From: Terriglobia bacterium
Lineage (GTDB): Bacteria > Acidobacteriota > Terriglobia > 20CM-2-55-15
Assembly: GCA_963664115.2 (NCBI GenBank)
Contig: CAXWPJ010000009.1
Location: 1,056,001 to 1,120,000, forward strand
DNA: 64,000 bases
Reading direction: 5' to 3'
A program made the translations under genes and the position numbers. A model generated the notes under the pieces. It made no database searches. It was not told where the DNA came from and saw only the letters and a list, made by a program, of their open reading frames with translations. This document shows positions 708 to 23,342 of this stretch, one piece after another (position 1 is the stretch's first letter; each line of letters starts with the position of its first letter).

Positions 708-2783
708 ATGTTGAAAAACTCGTTCCGTTTCTTGGTCCCTGGCGCTTTTGGGACTTTGGCGGCACTCCTTCTGCTGACCGGTACACAAGTCGGCATGATC
801 CTGGGAGAAGCCTCCCCCCCCCAACAGGGTGGGCTATCCCCAGAGACGAGGACTACGATCGAGTTGGAGCGCGCGCCTACACGGGAAATCAAAGATCCTT
901 ATCCTGGGTTCAGCGCGGTGGCAGTGGATGTGGCCAATGATGAAATCATTCTCCACGACGAAAACAATGCCCAGATCATGGTGTATAGCCGGCTGGACGA
1001 TACACCGGACCGGGCGACCCTGACCGAGCCTAAGCGGATCATCGGAGGGCCGGCGACGAATATCCAGATGAACTGTGGCATTTATGTGGACCCGTTTTCA
1101 GGGGACATCTATTCAGTGAACGGCGACACCGCGGATTGGATGGGCGTGTGGACTCGTGAGCAAAGGGGAAACGTCGCTCCCACCCGGGAGTTGGAGGCTC
1201 CGCATCGCGCTTTCGGCGTCGTGGTGGATGAAGAAGCCCAGGAGCTTTTCATGACCATCCAGCATCCGCCCGCAGTAGTGGTCTGGCCCAAGCTGGCCAA
1301 GGATCAGGATGCCCCCCTCCGCATTCTGGAAGGGGACAAGACCCAATTGGCCTCGGCACAGGGAATTACCATAGACACTGAAAATCAGTGGCTATATGTG
1401 AGCAATGTGGGCGCCACGAGCCGCAACAGCTTCAATCAGGGATGGTCCCGTGCCCTGATTCCCGGCTCTGCGACCTGGGAAATTCCGAACAGAATCTTGG
1501 ACTATATTCCCGGCTCCGGTGAATTCCGCCCCCCTTCGATCACGGTGCATGACCTGAAGGCAAACGGTGACACCGCACCTTTACGCGTGATCCAGGGGCC
1601 GTTGACCCAACTCAACTGGCCGGCACACATCTCGGTGGATGTAGAGAGCGACGAGCTTTTTGTGACCAACCCGGTCACGCATGAAATTCTCGTCTTCCGC
1701 GCCAGCGCCAGCGGCAACGTGGCTCCTATTCGCGTTCTGGGGGGGCCCCGGACGGGACTCAGTCATCCGCACGGCGTGTTTGTGGACCCGAATAACGACG
1801 AGCTCGTTGTGGCTAACTTCGGGAACCATTCGTCTACCGTTTACGCGCAGAACGCATCGGGCGACACCCCACCGCTCCGAACGATCCGGGCGGCTCCTGC
1901 CGACGCACCCGCCCCTATGTTTGGCAACATCGGGTCGGCGACCTACGACAGCATTCGGGATGAGCTTCTGGTGCCCAACTGAGTGGCCTTCCCGTCTATA
2001 GCGGCGTTCGCCAGGTTGGCGGACGGTAGTGTGGAAGCGACTCGAAGGATTGCAGGACAGGCATCGAAGGTTAGTCGTGCGGCGCACGACATTACTTTCG
2101 ATCCGGTCAATGATGAAATTATTGTGGCCAATCCCAGTGCCCAGGCCATCACAACGTTTAGGGGAGGGGCCGATGGAGACGAGGCGCCCCTACGGATCAT
2201 TCAGGGTCCGAACACGAACATCCAGTCACCGGGCTACGGTGTGACCGTAGATCCGGTCAACGACGAACTGTACGTGGTTGAAGGGAGATCGAGAAATACC
2301 TTCGGTGAAAGGCGTGAGGAGTACATTCTCGTGTTCCCCCGGGAAACCAATGGCGACGCTTCACCGATTCGTGTCATCCGGGGCCCGGACACTATGCTGG
2401 AGAACACACAGGCCATAGCGGTCGACCCGGTGCGTAACCTAATCGTCGTGAGCAGCAACAATGGGGCCCTGATCTTCAACCGGACCGACAACGGAAACGT
2501 GAAGCCCCGGGCAATCATCAGGAATCTGGATGGGGGGCGCACGATCAGCTCAAACTTCCGTCTGGTTCCCGAGACAGGCTACATCGTGTCGACAAGCCGC
2601 CGAGGCGGCATCGAGGTGTGGCACATTACTGATAACGGCGACGTCCCTCCGGCATATATCCTGAACAATCCCGACGGTGACATCGGGGGGGGGCGTGTCG
2701 CGCTGAACCCGAATGCGAAAGAGGTCATCGTTGCAGGACGGACAGCCGTGTCTGTCTATTCGTTCCCGGAAATTTTCGAGTAG
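708..2783 (+). CDS. Secreted NHL-like beta-propeller repeat protein, probable selenoprotein (in-frame UGA 1980-1982), 691 aa, paralog 1
   Basis: ORFs 708-1982 and 1983-2783 are contiguous and in frame. It has a hydrophobic N-terminal signal and G-[DN]-x-AP-x-R-x-I-x-G-x-x-T blade repeats on both sides of the TGA. A SECIS-like hairpin follows. Confidence 0.8.
2005..2025 (+). promoter_or_regulatory. Putative bacterial SECIS element (paralog 1)
   Basis: CGTTCGCCA-GGT-TGGCGGACG: 9-bp stem with one G-U pair and a G-led loop starting 32 nt after the UGA. Confidence 0.75.
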
Positions 2784-2795
2784 GCTGTGCAGGTT

Positions 2796-2822
2796 CGGAG
2801 GCATTCCGACGGAATGCCTCCG
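2796..2822. repeat. Perfect inverted repeat between convergent genes (terminator or REP-like)
   Basis: CGGAGGCATTCCG-A-CGGAATGCCTCCG. Confidence 0.6.
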
Positions 2823-2977
2823 ACGGCAAACGGAGGCAAGGCCAAAGCGTGATGTGAAGCCGCCGCCGAACTCGATAAAGATTCGCAAGACAAGAAGGTC
2901 GTAGCCTGCGCGACTTGACTCATCAAAGAAGTTCGAAACCCCGGTACCGAGCACTCGAACCCTAAAACCGAGCATTC

Positions 2978-5209
2978 CTAGAAGCTGAAAAGATTCGTCA
3001 GCTTGACGGTAAACGTGCGCTCGACGAGCTGACCGTTTCGCGTGTCCCGGAGGTCGTTATAAACAAGGTAAAGATCGCTCCGGGGATGGTGAATGAAGTT
3101 GAAGCGAATGTTGGAACTCACCTGGTGCGTGTCGGCGTTGTATTGAACGAAGCTATTGAGAAAGACCCGCGGTGAAAATCCGTAAAGCAGGCGCGCGCCG
3201 ACGAGAGTGGTCTGGAACGAGCCGTTCGGCAAACTCACCCGGTTGTGGCTGTAATTCACATTGATGTTCATATGGTAATTTGGCCTGAAACCCACAGCGC
3301 CACCGACGGACTTGCGATGGCCATGCCAGAACTCACCCAAATTGATGTTGACGTTTCCGGTAATCTTCCCTGTCTGGCTGCTGTTGAATCTCAATGAATA
3401 TTGGCGGTATCTGTAATCGCCCGCGTCGATCGCGAGATCCGATGCGTGTCCCCGTCTCAGGGATCGGATCAGAAAAGGGTTCACGAGCCGGTCGAAGGTT
3501 TCGGCGACAGTGAGATTGGCGCTTGCGCCGCTCTGCAACTCGATGCCAACGTTGACCTCCTGGTTACGAGTTGCCACTTTTCCGTTTCCACCTCCGTAGT
3601 AGTCCAGATAGGTCGAAAAGATCAGGTTTCGAACTATCCTGCTTTCTCTCAGGAGAGGCCGCCAGGCAAAATTTCCCGAGTACTGCGTCATGTCTCTGCG
3701 ACGGATGAAGCCCATCTCTGGATTGAAATTAGTTTGGACGGCGTGGTATTCCGCCCCAACGACCCATTCATCGTCGCGCCAGGCGGTCGCAAACTTCCTC
3801 GCCTGATCCTTGCCGGATTTGCCCGGCGTGTCGCTGCGGAGGAGGTAGGAGTCGAACTCCAGCCTTTCATAGAATTGGAAGTGCGCATCGGCGCCGTACA
3901 CGCGGTTGTAGTCGCCGGCTTCGGTGGATTGACGATTGGTGATCAACGAACCGATCCAGGAACTCGTGGAAAAATTCCGTTTGATGCGGCCAACGAGATA
4001 GTTGTTGGATGGTATCCGGAGGTCGTCATCTTTATTAAAGCTTTCGGTTTTCATGGTCAGAAAACCAAGGTCGTATCGTCCGACTTGTCCTGTAACGCGC
4101 GCGCCTCCAACAATGGGGACCGGCGTCCCACCGCTGAGACCGATGGATCGGCTGAAGAACGGAACCAGATTTACCCCACGTCCACTACCACCAAAATTAA
4201 AGGTGCCGGCGTTTTCGAGAAAGAAGTCGCGTTTTTCAGGGAAGAAAAGATTGAAGCGCGTGAGGTTTACCTGCTGCTGATCGACTTCGACCTGCGCGAA
4301 GTCGGTACGGTAGGTGGCGTCGAGAGTCAGCGAAGGTGTGAGGCTGTACTTTAGATCGACGCCGCCATCGTAGTCTGTCGTTGTCTGGATCGGGCCGTCT
4401 GTTTCACGAATCTGCGTGACCCCGGTTATCCCGAACGGCTTCACTTTCAAGTTACGGCCCTGGCGTATCCCTTCCAGGCCCTTGAGTGTGCCGGCCTGGG
4501 AGATTCGGCTCATGCCGTATCGGACGGGGATCGGCGACCAGAAGCTCTGTTCGTTTGTGCGGACAACGAAACGGTTCAGGTTGATGCCCCACTCCTGAGT
4601 GGGGGATTGTGAGAAACGGAGAGTTTTAAAGGGGATTGCGAATTCTGCAATCCAACTTTCGTCGTTCGTGCTGACCTTGACGTCCCACACGCTGTCCCAA
4701 TCATTATTGTATTGACCGTTGTTGGTGATGTGCGATTCGCGCTTCGCGCCCGCGGGATTCGTGCCGAACTGGTACGCGGACCGCCGGTCATGAAGGCTGT
4801 CGATAACCATAGAGACGCCGTCGGATTCCCGGGAAGTGAAGTCTTCTCTGAGAACAACGACATTGTCGGAGGGATCGGAATCGAAGCTGATGAAGCCGAC
4901 GTAGAGATTTTCGTCGTCATAAACGATGCGAACTTCGGTCCGTGCCTCCGACAGCTCTCCGGGCCGCGGGCGTAAGGTGAAGAATTCCGTTACGGGGCTG
5001 GCGAGATCCCATGCCGGCTCGTCCAGACGTCCATCAAGAACGATCTCGTCCGTGGCTCGAACCGCCGTCATGACCTTTTCCAGAGGGATGGTCTCGTAAT
5101 CAATCGCTGTTAGGGGCGAGCCGCTGCCACTTCCGTTTGCCTGCGCCCCGCCATAAGCTGCGACGGCGGACAGGAGGCAGAGTGCCAGTATCCGAGCCGA
5201 TGCATTCAT
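2978..5209 (-). CDS. DUF5916 / CBM9-like domain outer-membrane protein
   Basis: Signal peptide; LDGRLDEPAW, TEVRIVYDDENLYV, W-x-AEFAIPFKTLRF and DFAQVEVD...NLTRFNLFFPEKRDFFLE motifs; terminal Phe. Confidence 0.8.
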   Translation of the reverse strand: MNASARILALCLLSAVAAYGGAQANGSGSGSPLTAIDYETIPLEKVMTAVRATDEIVLDGRLDEPAWDLASPVTEFFTLRPRPGELSEARTEVRIVYDDENLYVGFISFDSDPSDNVVVLREDFTSRESDGVSMVIDSLHDRRSAYQFGTNPAGAKRESHITNNGQYNNDWDSVWDVKVSTNDESWIAEFAIPFKTLRFSQSPTQEWGINLNRFVVRTNEQSFWSPIPVRYGMSRISQAGTLKGLEGIRQGRNLKVKPFGITGVTQIRETDGPIQTTTDYDGGVDLKYSLTPSLTLDATYRTDFAQVEVDQQQVNLTRFNLFFPEKRDFFLENAGTFNFGGSGRGVNLVPFFSRSIGLSGGTPVPIVGGARVTGQVGRYDLGFLTMKTESFNKDDDLRIPSNNYLVGRIKRNFSTSSWIGSLITNRQSTEAGDYNRVYGADAHFQFYERLEFDSYLLRSDTPGKSGKDQARKFATAWRDDEWVVGAEYHAVQTNFNPEMGFIRRRDMTQYSGNFAWRPLLRESRIVRNLIFSTYLDYYGGGNGKVATRNQEVNVGIELQSGASANLTVAETFDRLVNPFLIRSLRRGHASDLAIDAGDYRYRQYSLRFNSSQTGKITGNVNINLGEFWHGHRKSVGGAVGFRPNYHMNINVNYSHNRVSLPNGSFQTTLVGARLLYGFSPRVFLNSFVQYNADTHQVSSNIRFNFIHHPRSDLYLVYNDLRDTRNGQLVERTFTVKLTNLFSF

Positions 5210-5645: not shown

Positions 5646-5752
5646 TTGTATCTGATTGCAGTAGTGTAAATCGGTTGCTCAATGATTCGTTTTGAGGCTC
5701 TTTTATTGGGTAGATCAAGGCCCCGTTAAGTGGGCCTGTGGAGGAAACGATT

Positions 5753-8700
5753 ATGAAGGTTGCGATGAGTGGAATGAAATGTCTGTTTGGGATAATTCTG
5801 ATCCTGGGGCTTGGCGGCGCTACAGCCTGGGCTCAGACGACCGGAGAGATCAGTGGTACGGTGACGGACACAAGCGGAGCTCTGCTACCGGGTGTCGAGG
5901 TGAGCGTGACCCAAACCGATACGGGTGCTACGCGAAACGCCGTGTCGAACGAGGTCGGAGGGTATGTGTTTACGAACCTGCCGTTGGGCCCGTATGAGCT
6001 GGAAGGGGCCTTGCCTGGATTCCAGACCTATGTGCAGACCGGCATTCTGTTACAGGTTGGCAGCGCGCCACGGATCAATGTCGTAATGGAGGTGGGTCAG
6101 GTCACCCAAACCATAGAGGTCCAGGCCAATAGGGTGATGGTAGAAACCCGGACATTGGGTGTGGCTTCCATCATGGAAAATGAACGCATTCTGGAACTGC
6201 CGCTGAACGGACGCCAGGTCGAGTCCCTGATCACGCTGGCCGGCGGCGCGGTTTCCGACGGCGGCCGCAGCAACCGGGCCCTGGGCGGAGAAGAGATTTC
6301 CGTGGCCGGCAGCTCGGTATACGCGGTGGACTATACCCTCGACGGCGCGAATCACATGAACTACACCAGTTCGGCGGGTCATGCCATGCCGTTTCCCGAC
6401 GCGCTGGAAGAGTTCAATGTGAGGACAAGCGGCCTGAGTGCTGAGAACGCACGGGCAGTCACGGTCGGAGCGGTGACCAAATCGGGTACCAACCAGTTCC
6501 ATGGCAGCGCGTTCGAATTCGTGCGCAACGACGCATTGAACGCGAGGGAATATTTCTCGCCGACGAACAGTACGCTCAAGCGCAACCAGTTCGGCGGCAC
6601 GTTCGGCGGGCCGATCATAGGGGACAAGCTGTTCTTCTTTGCCGCCGTCCAGTTCACCACCCTGCGTTCGGACCCGGCAAACGAGGTGGACATTCTGCCC
6701 ACTGAGGAAATGAAGCTGGGCGACTTCAGGAACTTCGGTTCAGAAGACTGCGAGGATCGAAATCTGAGAGACATAACGAATTGGGGCGGGCCGGACATAG
6801 ATTTCGACTTCAATGGCAACAACACGGTGGACCCGGCTCTGTTCAGCCCGGCTGCGATGAGTATCATCAACACGCTGCCCAGGCCGCAAGATCAGAAATG
6901 CGGCGAGTTCACCTACGGCATTTTGGAAGTCGATAACGCCTCCCAGTACGTGGGCCGGGTCGACTATACGGTCAGCGACCGTCACTCGGTGTTCGGACGC
7001 TACAACACATTCGGCAACCGCGCGCCGAGCCCGTTTTTAGCGGACCAGTCAAACATCCTGCTCGCGGACGTCCGCACGCTCGACAATCTGGGCCAGTACC
7101 TGGCGTTGGGCGATACCTATCTGTTTGGCGACAGCACGGTCAATTCATTCCGTTTCACCTACAACCGGGTGAAGGTCGGCCGTGACGGCACGACGTTCTA
7201 TTCCCCGTGTGACCATGGCGTCAATATGTACTGCGGGTACGTGCCGAAAACTTCGAACATTTCGGTCCGGGGCGGATTCGAGTTGAGCCAGACGTCGGCG
7301 CCGCTCGATTTTCTGTTCTCGCACGCCTTCGACGTCAACAACGATCTGAGCTTCATCATGGGAGACCACCAGATCACGGTCGGTGGAGGCATTAACCGCA
7401 CCTTACACCAGGCCAAGACCAGTTCGCGAGCCGTCGGCGACTTCGACTTTCGTACCGGAGGTTCCCGCGAAGCCGTGGCCAACTTCATGGTCGGATTCGT
7501 GGACCGGTTTATCCAGGGCGCGTTGAGCACCCACAACCCGATGCGATGGTTCCCCAGGGTGTATGCGACCGACACCTGGAGAGTGACGCCGACGCTCACC
7601 TTGAACTACGGGCTACGGTGGGATCCCCAGATGCCCGAGCACCGGTTGAACGACTCCGGTTTCAGTTGGACTCGGGAGAGATTCGACGCAGGCTTCCAAA
7701 GCAGTGTGTTCAACAACTCCGCTCCGGGTTTCTTCTACTTTGGCGATTCCGGGTTCCCCGACAACTCAGGGGGCATCGAGCCGATATGGAATCAGTTCGC
7801 ACCCCGAATCGGTTTGGCGTGGGATATGTTCGGCGACGGCAGCACTTCGCTTCGGACGTCCTACAGCTACAACTATGAAGTCGTACCCATGGAATGGGCC
7901 AACGAGATGGGCAACGCGCCGCCGTTCGGCAACCGTGTCGAGGTCAACCAGGTGCTTTTCGACGATCCCTGGAGGGGCACCTTCAATCCCCATCCCTTCG
8001 ATCTGGATGCAAACGTACCTTTCGGGAGCGGCGGAAATTACCCCATCCTGCCGACGGACTTTTCCCAACCCGATACCTCGTCGTGGAACCTGAGCATCCA
8101 GCGACAGCTTCCGGGCAACACGCTCGTGTCGGCGACCTATGTGGGTAACATCACAAACCACTTCATGGGCGTGCGGCAGATCAACCCGGCAGTCTTTTTC
8201 CCGGGTGAGACCGATGCGAACGGCAACTGCTCTGCCCAAGGCTTTACGATCAAAGCCGATTCCCGGGGCCGTTCAGGCCGCACCTGCTCGGTGTTCGGGA
8301 ACACGCAACAGCGGCGCGTTTTGAACCTGTTGCGTCCTGGAACCGATACCGGACTCCAGGGTTCCCTGCTGCAACTGGGAGCGATGACGGATCGGAGCCC
8401 GGAGGGCACCCAGCGCTACGCCGGCCTGATCACGAGTGTCCAAACCCGCCCCTCGGAACGTCTCAACTTCAATGCGAACTACACCTGGGGCCACTGCATC
8501 GGCGACTACACGTCGGGCAGTCCGACGGCCGGCCCGAACACAGACCAGACCCAATTGAAACCTCTGGATCGGCGGTTTGATTGGGGCGACTGCAATCTGG
8601 ACCGGCGGCACATATTCAATTTGACATCGGTGTTGGGTACGCCCGATTTCGCGAATAACACGACTCGCATGCTGCTGGGCAACTGGAGGTTAGCAGTCAT

Positions 8701-9151
8701 CTACAGAGCGTCTTCGGGCGAGAAGTCGTCGATCTTTACCTCCGACGACGACCTATCATTGACCGGGACCGCGACAGGCCACCAGCGCGGCAATCAGATA
8801 CTCCCCAGCGTTTATCTGAACAAGAGCGCCGGTCCCAACGAACGGTACCTCGATCCGGACGCTGTCGCGGACCCGGCTGAAGGCGCGTTTGGGAATTTAG
8901 GACGCAACAGCGTGGTGGGGCCCCGGCAATGGGACTTCGATGTCGCCCTGTCGCGAGTCTTCAACGTCGGCGAAACCTCGAGGATTGAGTTTCGAGCCGA
9001 GGCGTATAACCTCACGAACAGCTTCCGGGCGACACCGGGCGACGTAGATTTCTTTACGATCGACGATAGGAACTTCGGCCGATTCAACGCTGCAAACGGG
9101 AGTGCCCGGTCTCCACGAATCCTGCAGGGTGCCTTGAAGTTCGTCTTCTAG
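5753..9151 (+). CDS. TonB-dependent receptor, Oar-like, with carboxypeptidase-regulatory-like N-terminal domain
   Basis: GGAGG RBS; signal peptide; ISGTVTDTSGALLPG, ELPLNGR, TKSGTNQFHGSAFEF, NQFGGTFGGPI and FAPRIGLAWD motifs; ends LKFVF. Confidence 0.92.
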   Translation: MKVAMSGMKCLFGIILILGLGGATAWAQTTGEISGTVTDTSGALLPGVEVSVTQTDTGATRNAVSNEVGGYVFTNLPLGPYELEGALPGFQTYVQTGILLQVGSAPRINVVMEVGQVTQTIEVQANRVMVETRTLGVASIMENERILELPLNGRQVESLITLAGGAVSDGGRSNRALGGEEISVAGSSVYAVDYTLDGANHMNYTSSAGHAMPFPDALEEFNVRTSGLSAENARAVTVGAVTKSGTNQFHGSAFEFVRNDALNAREYFSPTNSTLKRNQFGGTFGGPIIGDKLFFFAAVQFTTLRSDPANEVDILPTEEMKLGDFRNFGSEDCEDRNLRDITNWGGPDIDFDFNGNNTVDPALFSPAAMSIINTLPRPQDQKCGEFTYGILEVDNASQYVGRVDYTVSDRHSVFGRYNTFGNRAPSPFLADQSNILLADVRTLDNLGQYLALGDTYLFGDSTVNSFRFTYNRVKVGRDGTTFYSPCDHGVNMYCGYVPKTSNISVRGGFELSQTSAPLDFLFSHAFDVNNDLSFIMGDHQITVGGGINRTLHQAKTSSRAVGDFDFRTGGSREAVANFMVGFVDRFIQGALSTHNPMRWFPRVYATDTWRVTPTLTLNYGLRWDPQMPEHRLNDSGFSWTRERFDAGFQSSVFNNSAPGFFYFGDSGFPDNSGGIEPIWNQFAPRIGLAWDMFGDGSTSLRTSYSYNYEVVPMEWANEMGNAPPFGNRVEVNQVLFDDPWRGTFNPHPFDLDANVPFGSGGNYPILPTDFSQPDTSSWNLSIQRQLPGNTLVSATYVGNITNHFMGVRQINPAVFFPGETDANGNCSAQGFTIKADSRGRSGRTCSVFGNTQQRRVLNLLRPGTDTGLQGSLLQLGAMTDRSPEGTQRYAGLITSVQTRPSERLNFNANYTWGHCIGDYTSGSPTAGPNTDQTQLKPLDRRFDWGDCNLDRRHIFNLTSVLGTPDFANNTTRMLLGNWRLAVIYRASSGEKSSIFTSDDDLSLTGTATGHQRGNQILPSVYLNKSAGPNERYLDPDAVADPAEGAFGNLGRNSVVGPRQWDFDVALSRVFNVGETSRIEFRAEAYNLTNSFRATPGDVDFFTIDDRNFGRFNAANGSARSPRILQGALKFVF

Positions 9152-9178
9152 TCGGCGGTAGCTGCAATCGATCCCGAT

Positions 9179-9235
9179 AAAGGGACGGATTCCTCTCCTC
9201 ATCGTGCTGTTCGAGGAGGGGGCCGTCCCTTTTTG
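9179..9235 (+). terminator. Rho-independent terminator
   Basis: AAGGGACGG...CCGTCCCTT stem followed by a T-run, just after the receptor stop codon. Confidence 0.7.
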
Positions 9236-9390
9236 TGCCTGTGGGAGGCTGGGTCGCGTACGAGGGGATGGCCTGGGACTGTTCCCGGTGTTTAGAACTG
9301 GGACCGCATCCCGATTTCAAATAGGCAAGAGGCCTGCCCCACGATAACACCGCGCCCACCGGCTATTCCGGGAGCCGGGCGATCAGGTCG

Positions 9391-9522
9391 TTACGGCTTT
9401 ACGCAGCACACACACGAGCAGTGGCACCGGCTTGGATCGGCCTCGCACTTGCAGGAACAACCTTCCGGGCCACAGTCGCAATTTTCGCAGCACTTACATT
9501 GGCACTGATATTCGGTGGGCAT
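9391..9522 (-). CDS. Cys-rich metallothionein-like microprotein (43 aa, 14 Cys)
   Basis: MPTEYQCQCKCCENCDCGPEGCSCKCEADPSRCHCSCVCCVKP; AAGGAG RBS 7 nt upstream of the ATG. Confidence 0.75.
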   Translation of the reverse strand: MPTEYQCQCKCCENCDCGPEGCSCKCEADPSRCHCSCVCCVKP

Positions 9523-10057
9523 GTCAATTCTCCTTCTTCGCCGGTAATTATAATCTACTGACAGCAGCGCACGATCCTCAAGCAGCGCAACCGGTGGACA
9601 GTGGGTCTTTTCAAAATAGATCGCGATCATCTTCTGCAGCGCGGCGGGTCCGGGTGACAATCCGGCGACTGTAGCGTCGCTTAGTATGGGGCGGGCCGTC
9701 CTCGCGGGCCGAAGCTCGACCATTTCAAATCACCACCTTCTTTGAACCATCGATATGGCGATCTGAATTGCACTGTCGCTGGGGGATCCTCAACCTACCG
9801 ATACCCCTAGCTGCTCGCCGGATCCAGGATCCAGCCTAGTCGCCAAGCTCCACCCGTGTAATTCCATTGACCGTCCGGCCCGTATTTAACGAACCAAAGA
9901 ACGAAACCCGCCTGGAAAGAAGTTGTGGTGTTTAATTGGCTATTATAGTATGTGCGATAAGGCTCTCTGCCTGCCCTGTCTGCCCGATATGAATGTTGTC
10001 GCAGCTGATGCCTGAGGTGATTTCTGATCTGAGACCTGACTGTTTAAAGGAGACGGA

Positions 10058-12274
10058 ATGAGATTAATAAGGAAAAGAAAAGGCGCCCTGAGCATTGTGT
10101 CGCTCGCGGTGATCGCGATCGTGGGTGTCTGGGCTGGTGCCGTTGGTGAGGCGGCCCGAGAGCTGGCCCCGGAGACATCTCGATTGGTTGCCATCCATGA
10201 GATCTCTGATTTAGAGGCCTGCGCGTGGGACCAGCCTGGGGCTGGCTATTCCGATCTGGGGCCGTCCTTGCAGCCCGTAAATCTCTTGGCCGCGCTGGGG
10301 CCGCGATCTGCCTTACCTCTGATGGGATCGGTCGCACAAACGCCGGCGGAAATGCAGCGGGGACGCAACAGAGAGCCGTTCGAGGCACAGAGGAACGGGA
10401 CTGCAACGCGTGTGCGCAGGATCGCGGATACCTATCCGACGTACACCGCCGTGGGTATTAATCTCCAGACCAATGAAGTCATCCTTCAGGATAACAATTT
10501 GTGGTCGACCCGAATCTTCAACCGCTTGGACAACACCCCGCCGGACGCCGATTTAACCGAAGCAAAGAAGGTTATTCAAGGCGAACAGACCCATATCCAG
10601 TTCAACAACGGCATCTACATCGATCCGGGGAATGGGGACATCTATTCGGTCGAATCGGACACGGGCGACAGGATGGTTGTGTTTGCTCACGACGCGAGAG
10701 GCAATGCCGCACCCAAGCGCATTCTGAACACGCCGCATCGTGTGTATAGCATTGCCGTCGACGAAGAGCGGGAAGAGCTGTACGTGACGGTGGAGTACCC
10801 GCCCGAGGTGGTTGTGTATCGCAAGGACGCCTCCGGTGACGAGCAGCCGCTTCGCCGAATCGTGGGTCAACGCACAAAGCTTGAGGGTCCCCACGGTATC
10901 GCCGTCGATGTCGAGAACCAACTCTTGTACGTCAATACCTGGGGCCAGGCGACCAATTTCAGGAATCCCGGTACGGGCCGGTTCAATCCACCGGCCATCA
11001 ACATCTATCCGCTTGACGCCAGCGGGGACACACCGCCGGTGCGAAGGATTCAAGGAGACCGGACCCAAATGAACTGGCCCGGGAATATGGCGTTGAACCC
11101 CGATAATGGGGATCTGTATGTGGCCAATGACGTGGAACACTCGATTCTCGTCTTCACGGGACTGGCTTACGTCCGGGGCAACGTACCGCCGACACGAGTC
11201 ATCAAGGGAGACCAGACGGCTCTGGTTTACCCGACGGGTGTGGCTATCGATAGGACGAATCAGGAGTTGTGGGTTTCCAATCTGGGCAACGCCTCGGCCA
11301 CGGCGTATCCGTTGATGGCTGAGGGAAACGTCGAGCCCCTGCGCACGATCCGCAGTGCGCCTCGGGAACATCAATCGTTGACTTTCGGCCGCACCGCGGC
11401 GGTGGCCTATGACCCCAACCGGCAAGAAATCCTGATACCGAACTGAGTGAACCACCCGCAGATTGCGGCTTTCGCCAGGCTGGCGGAAGAGAACGCGACG
11501 CCCACACGCAAATTGGAAGGTCAACTGACGCGGCTCGGTCGGACCATGCACGATCTGTCCTACGACGCGATTCACGACGAAATTGTTGTGAGCAGTCCTT
11601 TCGCCCAGGCGATCCTGACATTCCGGGGCGGGGCTGACGGAGAGGAAGCGCCCCTTCGCATCATCCAGGGACCGCGTACCCAGATCGTCAGTGAGCGCGG
11701 CCTCGATAAGGTCACCATTGATCCGATCAATGAGGAAATCTTCATCGCCACTAGCCTCGATCAGATTCTGGTATTTGAACGGGAAGCGAACGGGGACGTG
11801 GCTCCCATCCGGGTTCTGGGTGGGCCTGACACCCGATTCACCGGGCGCCCCACCGTCCGTGTCGATCCGGCCAATGATCTCTTGTTGGTTTCGGCTCCGG
11901 GGCGCGACGAGGGGCTGTTGATTTTTGATCGGACCGCGAGCGGCAATACCCCACCACGGGCCGTGATCCCGGGGCCTTCCGGCAATCAATTTGAGATCTA
12001 CAACGACTTGATCATTACCCACAGGGTGGACACTATTTACGCCTGGAGCATCCATGATACCGGCGAGGATGTTCTTCCGATCTGGAAAATCCCAGCGCCT
12101 CTGGGCGACCGAGCCGAGACAACCAACCAACGGGGCATAGCCCTGGATCCTCTGCACAAAGAGGTCATCATTGGAACGGCGGCCGGAAATCAGGTTATGG
12201 TATTTTCCGTTCCGGAATTGTTCGATGGACCTGGCCCTTCCTCGTTGAATACGGACACGGCCGAACTTCGCTGA
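10058..12274 (+). CDS. Secreted NHL-like beta-propeller protein, probable selenoprotein (in-frame UGA 11444-11446), 738 aa, paralog 2
   Basis: ORFs 10058-11446 and 11447-12274 are in frame; context EILIPN-TGA-VNHPQIAAFARLA; SECIS-like hairpin follows. Confidence 0.82.
11469..11489 (+). promoter_or_regulatory. Putative bacterial SECIS element (paralog 2)
   Basis: CTTTCGCCA-GGC-TGGCGGAAG at the same offset from the UGA as in paralog 1. Confidence 0.75.
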
Positions 12275-12565
12275 CCCTCCGGATTGGCGGCGCTTCCCGA
12301 AGGCGCCGCCAGACCTAGATTCCCGCCCTGTCCACCCACACCTATTTCGGCAGCTCCACGCTTCGGTTTCCGAGCCGATCTGCGGTCTGCCTCCGACGGA
12401 ATGACTATCATCGCGCCCCCCTGTCCACGCGGCAATCCATTGCAAATCGCGGAACCCGGAGGCACCCGTCGATCGGGGATTGTTTTCGATGGGGAACCCC
12501 GTTTCCCGGGTTTATAATCATCTCACTAGCCGTCCAGCGATTCAGGCACCACAGGAGCGCATAGC

Positions 12566-15007
12566 ATGGGCCTATTCCGACCGGTTTTAATTTGTCTTCT
12601 GCTTCCCGGGGGCGCGCTTGGACAATTGTTGACCGAGAATCCGCTCGACGCCGTAAAGAATCAGGTTGATGAGGTGCTCCGAGACGCAGGGGATCCATTT
12701 ACGGCAGAACAGGAGAGACGGATAACGCTTCTACTCGAAGATCAGCGTCGGGCGTCGGAAGAGTTGTTTGGCGAGATCATGGATTTCAGCAGCGGCGTGC
12801 CGGAGGGAGCCGACCAAGACCGAGCGATCGCCGCTATTCAATGGATTCATGATGCATTCAGGAGGCGGCTTTCCGAGTACTTGACCCCCTCTCAGAGAGC
12901 CGCCTGGGAAGCGTTCGAATCAAGCGGAGTCGCCATCGGTGCTGAGATCGAAGGGGCCGTCCCAGGCGCCGATACTGCTCGGATTCAGGAGATTCGGGTC
13001 ACGAATAATCCCTTCAGCGCGGAAAGCGACGTCACATTTGCGAGCAGATGGCCGGTCGAGACACTGCGAACCGAGATTATCGAACGCGGAGGGGCTGGCG
13101 CATTCCACGGCAACCTATCCATGGCATTTCAGGATGACGTTTTGAACGCCCGGAATCCGGCCGCCACCAACAAACCCTCCTATCGCGAAAGGACGATCAG
13201 CGGGAACATCAGCGGCCCGGTAATCCGAAACAGGCTCACGGCCACCCTGAGCCTGAGGGACAATCGGCGGGAGAACGTCGGTACGGTCAACGCGCTGACT
13301 CTGGACGGACCGTTTACTTTGGGTATCACCCGTCCGAACGTCAACAGATCTTACGCCGGGAGGGGGATTTTGCAGATCGGCGAATCGCAGTCGCTCCACT
13401 TCGGCGTCGAGTTCGGCCAGGGCAGCCGCGAGAATCTGGATATGGGGGACTTTACACTGCCCGAGCGGGGTTCCAATGCGGATAGCCATAGCACCGACTT
13501 GGACTTGCGGCATCTTTGGATCTTGTCGGAACGATCCGTTTACGAAACCCGTTTTTCGTGGCGGAAGGACCGCAGTGAAACCCGTCCAATTACGACGGGC
13601 GTGGCCATAAACGTCTTGGATGCGTTCAACGGCGGAGGCGGTCAGCTTCGTGAGGAGACCGATGGCGCGACATATGAGTTCGGAAACCTGCTCTACCGCA
13701 CCGGCGATCGACTGACGTTGAGGGTGGGAATGAACGGTATATACCGCACCGAGGTTTTGCTGCATGAGGCGAACTTTCTGGGCCTCTTTACTTTCTCGGA
13801 CCTGGAAAGTTTCCGGAACGGGCGGCCGCGACAATACGATGTCAACCGGGGTAACCCACTGCTTGAAATGGATCAGCTCGACCTGGGTTTCTTCGTCCAG
13901 AATGACTTTCAGCTTACGAGCCGATTCACGTTGATGTTCGGCACACGTTATCAGTGGCAGACGAACCTCAGCAACAAACATGATGTTGATCCGCGCCTGA
14001 ATTTCGCGTATGCGATCGGGAGTTCCACGGTCCTTCGAGGCGGGGCCGGGATATTTCACACCCGCTTCCCACTGGCCGGCTTTGAAGAGCTGGCTCGATT
14101 CGACGGCACGAGACAGTTTGGACTCCGAGTCTCCGAACCCGGATGGCCCGACCCTTTTCAGTCGGGCGATGCCGAGATCGTTCCGCCGCCCTCCCGTTAT
14201 GTCGCGACCGCGGACCTTACGACAGGGTATTTCATCACTCAGAACATCGCGATCGAGCAGAACCTACCGGGTAATCTTTTCTTGACCCTCAGCTACGACC
14301 GCTCGCGATCTATGGGCAACCGGCGGATTCGAAACATCAATACACCGCTTCCCGGCACCATTACCGAGGAAAGTCCGGACGGTATCAAGCCGTTCCCGAA
14401 CGAGGGCGACATCATCGAGCGGAGGTCGACCGGTGTGACCGTCTTCCAGAACGTCAGAATCCATGCCCGGCAGCGGTTCAGCGTCTTTAACGTTGTTGCC
14501 AACTACAGATTCAATTGGGGATATAGCGATGGGAGGGGCTCCTTTCCGGCCTCAGATGCCTATGATTTAGGGGCGGACTGGGGACGGTCGGAACAGTTTC
14601 CGGAACATGACTTTACGGCAGGTTTTAACTCCCGGCTACCGTTGGACGTGTACCTGACGACAACCGTCTCCGCCCGGTCAGGCGATATCTACACCATCAC
14701 GACCGGAACGGATGACAATCGAGACGGATTTTTCACGGACCGGCCTGTCGGCGAACCCTTCAACGGAGCAACCGGACCCAATTACTTCGCCCTCGGTTTC
14801 AACCTCTCGAAGGCGTTTCAGCTCGGCCAGGCCACGGGCATTGGAGCCACAGGCCCGCGACTGAGTATTTTCGCGAACGTGAACAATGCCTTTAACAGGA
14901 CGAATCTCCGCGCGCCCAGCGGCGTTATGACCTCCCGCAACTTTGGACGTTCGACGAGCGCGTACGCTCCCCGGGGAATCGAGGTAGGAATGCGATTCCA
15001 GTTCTAA
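12566..15007 (+). CDS. Atypical Oar-like TonB-dependent receptor barrel protein with a helical N-terminal domain
   Basis: NNPFSAE, GAFHG, LNARNP, GFFVQNDF, PRLNFAY...TVLRGGAGIF and TTGTDDNRDG..DRP motifs; ends MRFQF; no carboxypeptidase-like N-domain. Confidence 0.75.
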   Translation: MGLFRPVLICLLLPGGALGQLLTENPLDAVKNQVDEVLRDAGDPFTAEQERRITLLLEDQRRASEELFGEIMDFSSGVPEGADQDRAIAAIQWIHDAFRRRLSEYLTPSQRAAWEAFESSGVAIGAEIEGAVPGADTARIQEIRVTNNPFSAESDVTFASRWPVETLRTEIIERGGAGAFHGNLSMAFQDDVLNARNPAATNKPSYRERTISGNISGPVIRNRLTATLSLRDNRRENVGTVNALTLDGPFTLGITRPNVNRSYAGRGILQIGESQSLHFGVEFGQGSRENLDMGDFTLPERGSNADSHSTDLDLRHLWILSERSVYETRFSWRKDRSETRPITTGVAINVLDAFNGGGGQLREETDGATYEFGNLLYRTGDRLTLRVGMNGIYRTEVLLHEANFLGLFTFSDLESFRNGRPRQYDVNRGNPLLEMDQLDLGFFVQNDFQLTSRFTLMFGTRYQWQTNLSNKHDVDPRLNFAYAIGSSTVLRGGAGIFHTRFPLAGFEELARFDGTRQFGLRVSEPGWPDPFQSGDAEIVPPPSRYVATADLTTGYFITQNIAIEQNLPGNLFLTLSYDRSRSMGNRRIRNINTPLPGTITEESPDGIKPFPNEGDIIERRSTGVTVFQNVRIHARQRFSVFNVVANYRFNWGYSDGRGSFPASDAYDLGADWGRSEQFPEHDFTAGFNSRLPLDVYLTTTVSARSGDIYTITTGTDDNRDGFFTDRPVGEPFNGATGPNYFALGFNLSKAFQLGQATGIGATGPRLSIFANVNNAFNRTNLRAPSGVMTSRNFGRSTSAYAPRGIEVGMRFQF

Positions 15008-17112: not shown

Positions 17113-17148
17113 AACTGTTACTTCAACTCCTTGATCGACAGATCGCGA

Positions 17149-20100
17149 TCAGAATTTGTACTTCAACGCGAACTGCAAGATCCGAGGATCCGCGGCCGAG
17201 GTGATCTGGCCAAAATCATTATCGTCGATAATATTCTCCGGGTTGCCCAGATTGACGTTGTTCGGCAAGTTAAAAGCCTCGGCTCGGATCTCGAGCGTCT
17301 GGTTCTCCCCGATGGCGAACGATCGAGTCAGTCCGACGTCGAGCGTAAAGATTCCCGGACCCCGGATGCTGTTGCGGCCAAGGTTCCCGTAGGTGCCACG
17401 CGCAGGTGTGGCGAAGGCGGCCGGGTTCAGCCACTGGTCGGCACTCTTGTTGGCCATGAAAACGTTGTCCATCAGTTGGTGCGCCCTCTGGTCGTCCTCA
17501 TCCGTATTCGCTCGGTCGCAATCGCAACCGACATCGAAAAAGTCGCCGGACAGGACCTTGAGAATGCCCGAGGCCCGCCAGCCGCCGGCCAGCACCCTCA
17601 GTGTGGAATTGGCGAACTGCGGCGTCTCGTACACCGTCGACATGTTGAACGCGTGCCGCCGGTCCAGAATGTTGTTGCCGCGGTTAGCCGTGCGCCGGCT
17701 GAGGTGCGGGCGCCCCGAACTGGTGGAATTGAAGCTGGTCTGATCGCCGATGCTGTGGGACCAGGTGTAGTTCATCCGGAGATTCATGCCCGCACTCTGC
17801 CGCTCGAGCGAGAGCCACATCGCGTTGTAGCTGCCCGTGCCCCCGTCGTCGAACTTATTGAGGGCGGCGAGCCCGGACTCTGGATTGGCGCGGGTCAGCT
17901 CCCGCACGCCGTCGATCTCCGGATTGGCCTCCCGGATGCCCAACAGGTGGATCGAGGTATTGCCGATGTAGTTCGCCGTCGCCATCCACTCGCGACCGAT
18001 CTGGCGCTGAAGACTGAGGTTCCATTGGTGAACGTAGGGCGACTTATAGTTCTCATCGAGGGTCATGAACAGCGCGTTTCGAGGGAAAACTAAGTCCGGG
18101 GTCGCAATGACAGGTATAGGGTTGCCTCCCGGATTCCTGATCCACGGGTCATCCAGTCCGCCGATGTACCGGTTCCACGTAATACGCGGGGTGAACGGCG
18201 TGAGGTTCCGCAGCCCGTTGAACTGGTATGTGTGCGGGTAGTCGTAGAAGACCCCATAGGCGGCGCGGATGCTCGTGCGGCCGTCGCCTGACACGTCCCA
18301 CGCCATGCCCACGCGGGGCGCAAAATGGCCCCACAGGTTGTTGCTGATCTGGGCATTGTCCGGCATTCCCTCATCGCCCGGGCCCGGTGGGCGGTCGCCG
18401 CCAGAGTACAGGTACCCCACCGGAGCGTTCACAAACACGGTGCTCTGGCGACCCTGGTCAAACCAGTCCCTCCGGAACCGCCCGGTGCGCTTGTCATTCC
18501 GCACCTGCGGCGTGAAGGGTTCCCAGCGGAGGCCGAGATTGAGCGTGAACTGATTATTCACCCTCCAGATGTCCTGCGCGTACAGCGATTGAAAGTCCTG
18601 CCGGGTATACCAGGTCGCGAGATCTTCCTGCCGGAAGCGGTCCACGTAACCGATCATGAAATCGGCCATCGACAGCCCGGTGCCCCGGGTTCGGAAGCGC
18701 CAATTGCCGGGGGAGGAGCTGCTGGACGAAATATACATGAGCTGGCGCATGTAAGATCCTCCGAACGCGAACTGGTGGTCGCCCTTCACCCAACCAATGT
18801 CGTTGGAGACTTCATAGCCGGTCGAGTTCGTGTACGACGGAGTGGCCTGCTGTGAGAACGTGTCGAACGCGCCTCGGACACTCGCCTCGGACATCGATGA
18901 TCATCATCTTCGGGTAAGGAGCCGCCGGAGAGGTGAAATCCTGGACCCCCACCTCCCCGGGCGTGAAAACGTCGAAGAACGATTTGGTGTTGGCTGTTCG
19001 AATCAGGGTCACCCGAAAAGAATTGATCAGATTGTTGTTGATCGACCACGTATCGCCGAACACGCCCGACTGGTATTTCCGGGCCCAATTCGGTTCATCC
19101 ACAGCTACGGGAATCGTCCCGTTGTAGTCGCTCGGACTCGTCAGCCTGTGAATCGAATAACGGAAAAACATCGAGTGGCTGTACTCACCTGAAAAGTCCG
19201 CGCGCGTTACCCACTGGTGCTCGTCTTCGTTTTCTCTTTCACTGAATTCGATTCTGCCGCACGGATCGGTTGTCTGCGGGAGCCGGGCGGCGATGTTTTT
19301 CGCCACCGGAGAGAGCAGCGCCGGGTCGATCTGGTTGTCAACGAAAGGGAAATCAGCCCTGATGTCTCTCCTGCCTCTCAAGGTGACCCCACGTCCCGCT
19401 CCCCGGCATTCGTCACCTGCGATCCGCCTGAAGTCACCGTTGAGCACCTCCGCGGTCGGAACGAAAGCGAAAGTGGTCGACGGCGCGGAACGCTTCATGG
19501 TCCGCTGATAGCCGGTGAAAAAGAACAGCCGGTCCCCGACAATCGGCCCCCCGAAGGTGCCGCCAAACTGGTTGCGCTTCAGCGAGTCGCGTTCGTTTGC
19601 GAACGTATTGCGGGCGTTGAATGCTTCGTTGCGCACGAATTCAAACGCGCTACCGTGAAACTGGTTTGTTCCCGACTTCGTCACTACGCTCACCAAGCCC
19701 GCCGAATGCTGGCCGTGCCGCGCGGGAATGGCACTGGTTTCGACTTTGAACTCCTGGAGTGCATCCGGAAACGGCAACGGCATGTTGAGGTTGTTGAACG
19801 GATCGTTGTGCGTTCCACCGTCCATCCGGTACGACAGGCCGTTATCCTGCCCACCACCGACCGAAACGGCGATGGTCGGATAGTTCCGGCTCGTGCCGCG
19901 GGTGGGTGAGGTGATAGCGGCCCCCGAAAGCGCGATCAGTTCGGTCGCATTACGTCCGTTGAGGGGAAGTTCCAGGACGCGCGCGTTGTCTAAGATCTGG
20001 CCAATGCCGGTGTTCCGGGTCTCCACCATTAGAGCGTCGGCCTGGACCTCGATGGTCTGGGCGAACTGTCCGACCTCCAGGACGACATTCGATGACAGGA

Positions 20101-20438
20101 CTGGCGCCCACCTGCAGCACGATTCCGGTTTGGAGAAAGGTACTGAAACCTGGAAGTGAAGCTTCCAGCGTATAGGGTCCCAGCGCGAGGTTCGGCAGGA
20201 TAAAGGATCCTGTTTCGTTCGAGACCGCCGTCCGAACCGTGCCCCTGTCAATGTTGGTTGTGGTGACTTCCACTCCGGGCAGCAAGGCCCCGGTCGGATC
20301 CGTAATCGTTCCGTTGATCTGGGCGGTCTCCTGGGCCCATGCTCCTGTCGACGTCAGTAGGACGATGAGAAGCCCTGCCAGCAGTCGGCACGCAACGATC
20401 CTACCGCCCCGTTCTTCGACTTTCTTAGCATTTTTCAT
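17149..20438 (-). pseudogene. Oar-like TonB-dependent receptor disrupted by two frameshifts
   Basis: Three overlapping ORFs join into a paralog of 5753-9151. There is an extra base at ~20090 (GTC ATC G AAT GTC) and a 13-nt duplication-insertion at 18870-18893. Confidence 0.8.
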
Positions 20439-20753
20439 AGCTGTCCTCCATTTCCATCATTAGCTACCGCCTGCTTTCTTCCTGGGCGGCTTCCGGATCT
20501 CGCGAAGCAGCCACGAGGGATCAAAGCGAAACCCTCAACCTTCAGGAAAGCACCAAACATCCCACCCGGTTCCGTGGTGGATCCATTCGTCCAGACAACA
20601 AATTTTCGGATTTCTGAGCGGACGATAACAATGCGGACCCGCTCTGTCAAGAGGGTACTGACTCATATGTCGAGACCACAAAATCTGTCAGGTTCTTGTA
20701 GCAAATGGCGTGTCTGGTCCTGAAAGAGCCGGGGTCTGGATAGAGGTTAGCGA

Positions 20754-20832
20754 ATGCCGGTGTATCCAGCCCGGAAACTGGAGCGGGCGATGAAGGTCAG
20801 AGAGGTGATTATACGAGCGATGAGCGGACAGA
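20754..20832 (+). mobile_element. Transposase N-terminal remnant (ISNCY/IS481-like)
   Basis: ERAMKVREVIIRAMSG resembles the start of HTH-containing acidobacterial transposases, then breaks off. Confidence 0.5.
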
Positions 20833-21020
20833 ACATCGACTATCGACCCGATGTCGGTTTTCTATTGACAGCCGGGCAACCGAAGTATAAACGTAACCGT
20901 GAAGCGTTCCGTCAAGGGGCCCGCATGGTTGATTTTCCACGAAGCGATTCGCTGCGGTTGCGACAAGATTGGCGTTTTTGCCGATCTGACTGCACCGCAG
21001 TTTTCTAAAGAGGGGACTTC

Positions 21021-23342
21021 ATGCACTTAACGAAAAGCAAATCTGTAATCGCAATTTTGGCGGTCACGCTGATCGGGATTGCGGGTGTCTGGGCCGGGCT
21101 TGTTCCGGAGTCGGCACCGGGAGTTGTTCCGGAGGCGACCTCGGGAACCGCCGAGAGCGTCGCTCGATTGGTTTCCGTCCAGGAATTCCCCCAACTCGAC
21201 GCCTGCGCATGGGATACCCCTGCCAGCTTCAGTTCGGGTCCGGCGCCATCGTTGAGTTCGGAAAATCTGCTCGGCGCCTTGGAGCAACGGGGGGGCGCTT
21301 CGTTTCTGACGGCTTCCCTGAGGCAACAAGCTCCGGTAATGCAGCAAGGGGGACGCGGGGGACCTGCAGAATTCGATTCCGACAGGCAGGGGACCTCGAC
21401 CCATCTGCGCACGCTGGCGGATACCTATCCCACCTTTACCGCTGTCGGCGTCAATACCAACACCAATGAAGTGATCCTGCAGGACAACAATCTATGGTCC
21501 GCCTACATCTTCAACCGGCTGGATAACACACCGCCGCGCGCGCGATTCAGCGAGCCGAAGCGGATCATCCAGGGGCCTGAGACCGAGATGCAGTTCAACA
21601 ACGGCCTCTACATCGATCCGGTGAACGGGGACATGTATTCGGTCGAATCGGACACGGGCGACAAGATGGTGGTGTTTGCCCAGGACGCCGGGGGTAACGT
21701 CGCGCCCAAGCGCATCCTGAACACACCCCATCGAGTGTACAGCGTTGCCGTCGACGAAGTGAGGGAGGAGCTCTACATCACCGTGGAGTACCCGCCCGAG
21801 GTGGTCGTGTACAACAAGAATGCCGAGGGGGATGAACTGCCGCTGCGGCGCATCGTCGGGGACAACACCCAGCTGGAAACACCCCACGGGATCGCCGTCG
21901 ACTCGAATCTCGGGCTCTTGTACGTGAACAACTGGGGCCATACCACGGATTTTGGAGATTCACGAGGTGGGACGACGGGTTACGAAGATAATGGCAGGAA
22001 TATTTCTCCTGTTGGCGATCCCTCTACGGGCCGGTTCAATCCGACTTCGATCACGATCTATTCGATCGAGGCGAACGGGGACGTGGCACCGATACGTGTG
22101 ATTGAAGGGGACCGGACGCAGTTGAATTGGCCTGGAAACATGACCGTGAACCAGGAGACCGGGGACCTGTATGTTGCCAATGACATGGATCACTCGATCC
22201 TGGTTTTCACAGGGTTGGACACCGCCGACGGCAACGTGGCGCCGACGCGGGTCATCAAGGGTGATCAGACCAAGCTGGTCCACCCGACCGGAGTGGCTGT
22301 GGACACCGTGAACCAGGAGTTGTGGGTGTCCAACCTGGGTAACGCATCGGGGGTGGCGTTTCCGCTCGAGGCCGATGGGAACGTGGCGCCCTTGCGGGTC
22401 GTACGTGCGGCGCCGGAGGAACACCAGTCGTTGATTTTCGGTCGGACCGCGGCGGTGACGTATGACCCCAACCGGGAAGAAATCCTGGTACCGAACTGAG
22501 TGAACCATCCGCAGGTTGCGGCCTTCGCCAGGTTGGCGGAGGAGAACGCGGTTCCGACACGTGTGATTGAAGGTGTGGCTTCACGGCTCGGCCGGACAAT
22601 GCATGATGTGATGTTCGATGCGATTCACGATGAACTCGTCGTGACGAGTCCATTCGCCCAGGCGATTTTGACATTCCGGGGCGATGCGGACGGCGAAGAA
22701 GCCCCCCTGCGCATCATCCAGGGTCCAAATACTCAGATCGTGAGCGAACGGGGTTTGGATAAAGTCACCATCGACCCGGTCAACAACGAGATCCTGATCG
22801 CGACCAACCACGGAGACGATCGAGACCCACTCGGAGCCATTCTGGTATTTCCGCGGGAAGCGGACGGCGATGTCGCTCCGATCCGGGTTCTAAGCGGGCC
22901 CGCCACCCAGTTCGGGGGCGGCCGTCCCTCGATGCGGGTCGACAACAAGAACGACCTGTTGCTCGTCGCTGAGAGTGGCGGTATTTTGATCTTTGATAGA
23001 ACCGCGAGCGGGAATACGCCGCCGGTTGGATGGATTCCAGGACCCAGCGGCAACCAGTTCGACGTCTACAACAATCTGATCATCACGCTGAGGGGCGACT
23101 ACCTCTACGCCTGGGACATCCACACCAGGGGCGAGGGCATCCGTCCGGTCTGGAAGATTTCAACTCCGCTGGGAGCGCGAGCCGCCCAGACGGGACTTGT
23201 TCTGGATCCTGTTCACGAGGAGGTCATCGTCGCGACCGGAGCCGGAAACCAGATTCTGGTGTTTCACGTTCCCGAAATATTCGCGGAACGCAGTGAGGTG
23301 CCACGCGCCTCGACACCATTCCGCTTCTCAGCTGAGGAGTAG
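21021..23342 (+). CDS. Secreted NHL-like beta-propeller protein, probable selenoprotein (in-frame UGA 22497-22499), 773 aa, paralog 3
   Basis: ORFs 21021-22499 and 22500-23342 are in frame; context EILVPN-TGA-VNHPQVAAFARLA; close paralog of copy 2. Confidence 0.82.
22522..22542 (+). promoter_or_regulatory. Putative bacterial SECIS element (paralog 3)
   Basis: CCTTCGCCA-GGT-TGGCGGAGG at the same offset from the UGA. Confidence 0.75.

Follow-up and report, generated by a model that had tools for sequence, protein, structure and literature searches.

Interrupted propeller genes and their downstream hairpins

The window analysed here is a 64,000-nt stretch of the genome of a Terriglobia bacterium (Acidobacteriota), at positions 1,056,001 to 1,120,000 of the forward strand of contig CAXWPJ010000009.1 (assembly GCA_963664115.2). 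It contains three copies of a gene for a predicted exported beta-propeller protein, each interrupted by an in-frame TGA that is the sole internal stop of its frame (691, 738 and 773 amino acids in copies 1, 2 and 3, respectively). Each protein has a hydrophobic N-terminal segment. Two small predicted hairpins, here called P1 and P2, follow each TGA (Table 1). P2 is very likely a bacterial selenocysteine insertion sequence (SECIS), through which the UGA would be read as selenocysteine (Sec).

The original prediction, made from these letters alone, had placed a hairpin at +23 to +43 after the TGA codons at 1980, 11444 and 22497; its sequences, coordinates and offsets were exact in all three copies. 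The second pair is G-C, T-A and C-G in copies 1, 2 and 3, and the AGG arginine codon is present in each, both as described. P2 folded into a 9-bp stem with a GGY loop in every copy (-12.7, -11.1 and -13.5 kcal/mol in copies 1, 2 and 3, respectively). The covariation among three copies is thin on its own, with a chance probability of approximately 0.03 at 30% background pairing, and +24 and +42 paired in only 9 of the 13 paralogs of the genome. When the full 66 nt from the UGA were folded, the hairpin was recovered in copies 1 and 3 and was missing from the minimum-energy fold of copy 2, and copy 1 alone folded better than shuffled sequences (z of -2.9, -0.9 and -1.2); folding from +10 recovered P2 in all three copies. 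A search of Rfam with window positions 11300-11700 gave no match at E <= 5.

The consensus model of the bacterial SECIS sets four criteria, on loop and stem size, the loop G-G/U, spacing and energy (PMC13188914). The three copies have a 3-nt apical loop and a 9-bp stem, where 3-9 nt and an upper stem of 4-16 bp are allowed; the family consensus has a 5-nt loop and an 8-bp stem. G followed by G/U occupied the first two loop positions at all 124 TGA sites collected below. The loop starts at +32, which corresponds to a spacing of 31 nt and, as had been proposed, lies within the allowed 16-37 nt; the minimum free energy was at or below the limit of -7.5 kcal/mol in all three copies. P2 thus shares with the model its place in the coding region after the UGA, the N1-G-[G/U]-N-N2 apex and an energy below -7.5; it differs in that the apex lies towards the outer limit of the permitted range and that a second conserved hairpin, for which the model has no element, abuts its 5' side. 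P2 is a SECIS of the standard type with an unusually distant loop. The proposed likeness to the fdhF apex of Escherichia coli (NC_000913.3) was borne out only for the CAGG-Y apex closed by A-U. The resemblance is otherwise loose, and P2 does not belong to the fdhF type: fdhF carries a four-base GGUC loop at +19 to +22, with U bulged out at +15 and an extended lower stem, whereas P2 has a GGY loop at +32 with neither bulge nor lower stem.

The genome was also scanned, as the original prediction had suggested, for like hairpins after the UGA of known selenogenes. Seven further genes with an in-frame TGA, all from known selenoprotein families (SelD, two AhpC/TSA, Rdx, deiodinase, OsmC and DUF3179), had a G-G/U loop, starting at +18, +21, +22, +22, +22, +23 and +27. 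The list of Sec genes is a lower bound because the filtered scan missed known cases, namely 5 of the 13 propeller genes and the DUF3179 gene; the propeller family accounts for 13 of at least 20 Sec candidates in the genome. In a separate search for OsmC, the listed matches from 57 of 201 genomes carried one TGA, with the exception of one fragment.

The TGA of copy 2 recurred in a contig from a public run, with zero differences over window positions 9800-11482; this run may be related to the source of the assembly. Contigs from RNA runs of two studies spanned parts on either side of the UGA, although neither transcription nor readthrough can be shown by contigs. A sigma-70-like promoter was looked for over window positions 9000-12700 and not found. 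Contigs of other paralogs and organisms piled up at 11441-11487, from the UGA to the hairpin, and assemblies broke there, because the stretch is conserved at the nucleotide level.

Table 1. Positions of the propeller genes, their hairpins and related genes (window coordinates unless a contig is named)
Feature	Position	Strand	Remarks
Propeller gene, copy 1	708..2783	+	691 aa with TGA read as Sec (U425); hydrophobic N-terminal segment
Copy 1 in-frame TGA, likely Sec	1980..1982	+	PN-U-VAFP
Copy 1 upstream hairpin P1 (+10..+22)	1992..2004	+	weakened: 4 pairs, one of them U-G
Copy 1 putative SECIS hairpin P2 (+23..+43)	2005..2025	+	GGU loop, outer pair G-C
Propeller gene, copy 2	10058..12274	+	738 aa (U463); 12 blades in the model, as two six-blade propellers
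Copy 2 in-frame TGA, likely Sec	11444..11446	+	PN-U-VNHP
Copy 2 upstream hairpin P1	11456..11468	+	5 bp, GAU loop
Copy 2 putative SECIS hairpin P2	11469..11489	+	GGC loop, outer pair U-A
Propeller gene, copy 3	21021..23342	+	773 aa (U493)
Copy 3 in-frame TGA, likely Sec	22497..22499	+	PN-U-VNHP
Copy 3 upstream hairpin P1	22509..22521	+	5 bp, GGU loop
Copy 3 putative SECIS hairpin P2	22522..22542	+	GGU loop, outer pair C-G
TonB-dependent-type outer-membrane barrel gene (PF25183 + PF13620)	5738..9151	+	upstream of copy 2; context
TonB-dependent-type barrel gene	12566..15007	+	downstream of copy 2; context
TonB-dependent-type barrel gene, split in two frames	17149..20251	-	divergent from copy 3; context
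Six other in-frame-TGA genes (OsmC, two AhpC/TSA, Rdx, deiodinase, SelD)	G000:C2:786105, C2:701068, C9:74840, C2:141203, C5:131175, C9:453331		G-G/U-loop hairpin in each
DUF3179 gene	L231:9714-11357 (G000:C2, downstream of paralog 357005-359326)		in-frame TGA (VTF-U-VVC), 8-bp hairpin, GU loop at +23

Hairpin conservation at UGA and cysteine sites

We compared 124 distinct 63-nt TGA sites, taken from the genome itself, its relatives and a genome scan of at least 103 stretches, with 54 sites encoding cysteine (Cys), 4 from the genome scan and 50 from 73 metagenome stretches. The DNA patterns of the scan admitted only TGA, TGC or TGT and fixed nothing beyond +20. The core hairpin was defined as pairs 27-39 to 30-36 together with G32 and G/U33. 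Equal retention of the hairpin and the AGG codon in Cys homologs had been named in the original prediction as the outcome that would speak against a SECIS; instead, the core was intact at 117 of the 124 TGA sites and at only 15 of the 54 Cys sites. The AGG codon was found at 116/124 TGA and 20/54 Cys sites, against a gene-body background of 8%. Its conservation, which held throughout the window, is therefore strong in the family without being invariant: the remaining eight TGA sites had CGT, CGG or AGT, and all eight still had G at +32 followed by G/U at +33. The C30-G36 pair was present at 124/124 TGA and 37/54 Cys sites, a stem energy of -7.5 kcal/mol or lower at 122/124 and 18/54, and G32 followed by G/U33 at 124/124 and 35/54, respectively, G32 being fixed by the amino acid as well. 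Third-position entropy at codons +9 to +13 was 0-0.3 bits in the TGA genes only, compared with 0.6-1.5 bits in the Cys genes, which used other codons for the same peptide. GTG directly followed the UGA at 112/124 TGA sites and the corresponding codon at 29/54 Cys sites (background 40%), a bias that neither hairpin explains.

An unrooted FastTree tree of 175 of the 178 sites (three were too short) contained 13 switches between Sec and Cys, of which 12 were forced by well-supported branches. Among 12 independent Sec/Cys pairs, the core was lost with Cys in 7.2 and the reverse was seen in 0 (median p 0.016). Cys genes on short branches beside Sec sisters retained the hairpin, whereas deeper Cys clades had lost it. 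The frequency of AGG in Cys genes (37% vs a background of 8%), together with the hairpin on short Cys branches, suggests that the switches were mostly from Sec to Cys, a direction inferred on an unrooted tree.

In 66 of the 124 TGA sites, 94.5% of cells paired, compared with 33-53% for slid partners. Double changes that kept core pairing were found at U27-A39, C28-G38 and A29-U37 (sites L054, L021 and L023, respectively), the latter two each at the cost of two amino-acid changes. These single cases are stronger evidence than the covarying pair at +24/+42, on which the original prediction had relied. That pair was of the Watson-Crick type at 86 of the 124 TGA sites (C-G 41, G-C 27, A-U 12 and U-A 6), against expectations of 36.6 after shuffling and 66.7 after shuffling within the same amino acid (0 of 5000 shuffles reached 86); at the Cys sites, 23 of 54 were paired, not significantly more than the 17.3 expected. 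In a tree-simulated null of independent evolution, none of 3000 simulations reached 86 (mean 36.1, maximum 73; 86/123 observed). The pair ranked first among 171 wobble-wobble pairs, with an excess of 0.405 (next, 0.059), and pair counting, run on 66 of the 124 sites, found 31 double-change cells, compared with 14.3 after shuffling. The claim that this covariation is independent of the protein held in part: it exceeded the within-amino-acid shuffle, but the independence is incomplete because Asp, Glu, Lys or Asn fixes a purine or a pyrimidine at +42. Since the pair was broken at 30 of the 124 sites, it is a tolerant outer pair.

P1, which was absent from the original prediction, lies directly 5' of P2 and would pair +10 to +14 with +18 to +22. 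Its synonymous bases were fixed toward pairing in the TGA genes (G12 124/124, G21 123/124 and U18 106/124) and less so in the Cys genes (50/54, 32/54 and 30/54; backgrounds 49%, 38% and 31%, respectively), while the wobble base of its loop varied. RNAalifold predicted both P1 and P2. The four-pair form of P1 tracked Sec on independent pairs (7.8 vs 0.6, median p 0.03); the three-pair form was not significant on the tree (p 0.375). Only one double change was found in the 124 sites (G14-C18, in L024), and none in the 66-row subset. We consider it probable that P1 forms. Its possible role as a spacer that takes up approximately 10 extra bases before the loop is more doubtful. A similarly tentative alternative is that the UGA encodes Sec but SelB needs P1, or P1 and P2 together, P2 alone being insufficient. 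That P1 starts where the upper stem of fdhF starts (+12) speaks for this alternative, as do the fixed synonymous positions, the four-pair result and the joint RNAalifold prediction; the P1 loop, however, is usually GAU rather than G-G/U and is variable, and the scarcity of double changes and the three-pair result count against it. Moreover, the OsmC-like genes have an apex at +27 without a conserved spacer hairpin: among 10 distinct true sites recovered from 30 loci, with one false row set aside, the pair held in 6, which also leaves unsupported a general rule that a small upstream hairpin compensates for long spacing.

The propeller family and its genomic setting

The genome contains 13 paralogs, mostly 40-65% identical, in which the TGA falls in a single alignment column (13/13) within the motif N-U-V-x-H-P. 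Copy 3 and the paralog at G000:C2:357005-359326 share 96.5% protein identity, which indicates a recent duplication, and insertion-sequence genes lie near several of the paralogs. Among 120 homologs listed of 727, 39 span the site, all with Cys, and the other 81 stop at the preceding Asn; 26 of 150 representatives start immediately after the site, where gene callers start a second open reading frame (ORF). Public annotation treats each propeller gene as two genes, under the names YncE or lactonase. The database names YncE and 6-phosphogluconolactonase were rejected, since scores were 15-28 bits against cut-offs of 370-400 and the model best matches six-bladed rather than seven-bladed propellers. 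In NCBIfam 20.0, no selenoprotein-family model scored above its cut-off for the three window proteins or for three Cys homologs.

The genome has the complete Sec machinery: selA, selB and selD were detected above cut-offs, selD with an in-frame TGA of its own, and a 98-nt tRNA-Sec was the only tRNA found with a UCA anticodon. TGA is the commonest stop codon, ending 550 of 1103 long frames. The family occurred in 10 of 40 close relatives; nine of these had a selA match, one as fragments only, and the tenth genome is 81% complete. Of the four Cys-form genomes, two had selA and the two without it are partial genomes of approximately 2 Mb. In a sample of the phylum, 3 of 300 other genomes matched an 82-amino-acid query, one of them strongly and with a TGA, although a non-match is not absence. 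Named records with the motif were mostly from Acidobacteriota, with few others. One record labelled Verrucomicrobiae (L085:1242) has a site identical to that of copy 3 over the 96 bases compared and is possibly a mis-binned contig.

An AlphaFold2 model of copy 2, built from a 36-sequence alignment, had a predicted local distance difference test (pLDDT) score of 84, a predicted template modelling (TM) score of 0.81 and twelve four-stranded repeats. The first propeller (model residues 124-417) matched six-bladed NHL propellers with Z up to 29.2 and a root-mean-square deviation of 2.2 A over 246 residues. The matches, TRIM71 (9jur), TRIM2 (7qrv), NHLRC2 (6gc1) and 7djl, share the six-bladed fold but differ in having only 14-19% identity to the family, which has two propellers in tandem, and the shared fold shows no function. 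Pfam matches of the NHL/propeller type were weak, with NHL at 27-33 bits (whole-protein cut-off 20); searching PDB sequences with the alignment yielded a single weak match, TRIM3 (E 6.5e-4), and Foldseek with the whole model gave tandem WD40-type matches only (TM approximately 0.3). The six-bladed NHL fold thus applies to propeller 1, and that of propeller 2 is suggested by its strand pattern. The structure search barely covered the second, Sec-bearing propeller; a single-sequence model of that half had a pLDDT of 45 and was discarded. The N-terminal strand 117-123 probably closes a second six-bladed propeller, an arrangement that would require a single chain.

In the model, residue Sec463 of blade 7 is flanked by strands 457-462 and 468-473. 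N462, P467, R455, F472, R495, H498, D507 and E508 were invariant in 139 near-full-length members, and a Cys near residue 55 or at 184 was present in 137 of the 139, the two exceptions being out of frame there, and in 94 of the 95 near-full Sec forms. For eight of the 13 paralogs, the nearest of 36 TonB-dependent-type barrel genes is at most 5 kb away, compared with 9% of random intervals. One paralog lies directly upstream of the DUF3179 Sec gene and a redoxin gene; the DUF3179 gene and this AhpC/TSA redoxin gene form a small Sec cluster. The product may be a Sec enzyme of redox or nucleophilic type, located in the periplasm or at the cell surface, a proposal to which we give an even chance, with metal binding or hydrolysis as alternatives. 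Sec would then occupy the loop joining strands B and C of blade 7, close to the predicted positions of His498 and Arg495; its resolving partner would be the conserved Cys of the N-terminal half, and the neighbouring TonB-dependent transporters would handle the substrates.

Alternative explanations, novelty and neighbouring genes

In the proposed mechanism, SelB carrying Sec-tRNA would dock on the N-G-(G/U)-N-N apex of P2, whose loop matches those of the SECIS candidates in the other Sec genes of the genome, and the UGA would then be read as Sec. The product would be one exported double beta-propeller selenoprotein, not the two ORFs of the gene callers. If the TGA were instead a true stop, two proteins would be made, the second starting at GTG, and the hairpin would serve translational coupling or mRNA stability. 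The excess of GTG after the TGA and the choice of this start by gene callers agree with such an arrangement, but we regard it as very improbable: every homolog that spans the site is one uninterrupted chain with Cys, a stop at this point would cut blade 7 between its strands B and C, and the hydrophobic export segment is found at the N-terminus only, with none at the second half. Every interrupted site scored was TGA; although the scan patterns were limited as described, unrestricted checks of paralogs and relatives also gave an internal TGA in nearly every full-length match. Hairpins downstream of stop codons can stimulate readthrough, which favours a reading of the UGA as Trp, Gly or Cys, by such readthrough or by reassignment. 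Reassignment conflicts with the use of TGA as the commonest stop and with tRNA-Sec as the only UCA-anticodon tRNA, and the homologs have Cys, not Trp or Gly; this explanation appears even less probable than a true stop. The least probable explanation takes the genes for pseudogenes or assembly errors, with the hairpin arising as a by-product of the conserved F-A-R-L-A peptide and shared ancestry. The peptide does fix several stem bases, and Cys forms still pair 26-40 (53/54) and 13-19 (54/54). However, the same TGA recurs in all the divergent paralogs and at 124 distinct sites, the downstream frame is open (103 of 124 reach at least 238 codons, and 300-base flanks account for many of the shorter ones), Cys genes encode the same peptide with other codons and the covariation survives the tree null. 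The Sec/Cys codon contrast already contradicts this explanation.

Several observations weigh against the reading of P2 as a SECIS and the UGA as Sec, or against its extension to function. Part of the signal persists without a UGA, in the Cys sites that keep an intact core (15/54) or the AGG codon (20/54); we read these tentatively as recent conversions. The Sec and Cys sets came mostly from different collections, and the propeller apex lies 5-14 nt further out than those of the seven other Sec candidates (+18 to +27). At +24/+42, the contrast between Sec and Cys on independent pairs was not significant (4.8 vs 0.5, median p 0.125), nor were small independent-pair tests (median p 0.06-0.25), and the share of parsimony changes in common (0.52) equalled that of the best control column (0.52). 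Co-occurrence with selA is weak evidence because selA is common in the relatives (36/41), and two Cys-form genomes also have it. The TonB association does not represent 13 independent events because the paralogs cluster in the genome. The proximity of Sec to His498 or to a partner Cys follows from blade register only, and Sec incorporation and enzyme function are both inferred.

The family is apparently an uncatalogued and expanded selenoprotein family. Among 119 catalogued prokaryotic families compared by names and motifs (Table 1 of PMC13188914, which includes the families of Haft and Tolstoy 2025), none was named for NHL, a beta-propeller or N-U-V-x-H-P. The catalogued families share with it a single Sec, Cys homologs and misannotation as truncated proteins; the propeller family differs in having 13 copies in a single genome and in having switched between Sec and Cys at least 12 times. 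The terms "NHL" and "propeller" were absent from the accessible portions of PMC13188914, PMC12013277 (text and four supplements), PMC2398784, PMC1976440, PMC9312934, PMC13326102 and 10.1101/2022.07.06.499078. Literature searches of the accessible material returned no paper on the propeller family. The text searches gave no sign of an NHL-repeat selenoprotein in the surveys of 2007-2008. The BSepDB family table and the report of Deng et al. 2026 (Cell Rep), which is said to contain unvalidated new selenoprotein candidates, may bear on novelty.

A fuller proposal would make this the first selenoprotein family with a beta-propeller fold: an exported Sec enzyme, linked to TonB transporters, that some Acidobacteriota carry in at least a dozen copies per genome and that reverts repeatedly to Cys, with a two-hairpin SECIS in which P1 takes up approximately 10 bases so that the +32 loop reaches the usual +21/+22. 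We think it unlikely that all of these parts hold together. The family nevertheless offers a clean natural experiment, with 124 UGA and 54 Cys sites in nearly the same peptide and at least 12 switches, in which the decay of the hairpin after a change from Sec to Cys is visible. This contrast would define the requirements of this SelB, an N-G-G/U-N-N apex on a short G-C stem, and offers a way to test how a SECIS can function when its loop lies at +32. The family also adds a fold that is absent by name from the current selenoprotein catalogue. The change from Sec to Cys has been called rare in bacteria by a 2026 review (PMC13188914); our data suggest that such reversion is less rare than stated there.

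Other genes of the window were noted in passing. The two frames of the split barrel gene upstream of copy 3 overlap, with a direct repeat of approximately 11 bases at the junction and the break near 18850-18900. A cluster of the xanthine/aldehyde-dehydrogenase molybdoenzyme type (23449-31062, minus strand) adjoins copy 3 and contains two large subunits, an FAD subunit and a 2Fe-2S subunit with a Tat-like signal. Positions 60210-63910 (plus strand) hold a DUF6152 gene, a 183-amino-acid kinase fragment and a 415-amino-acid NHL-repeat gene without a match in the family search.

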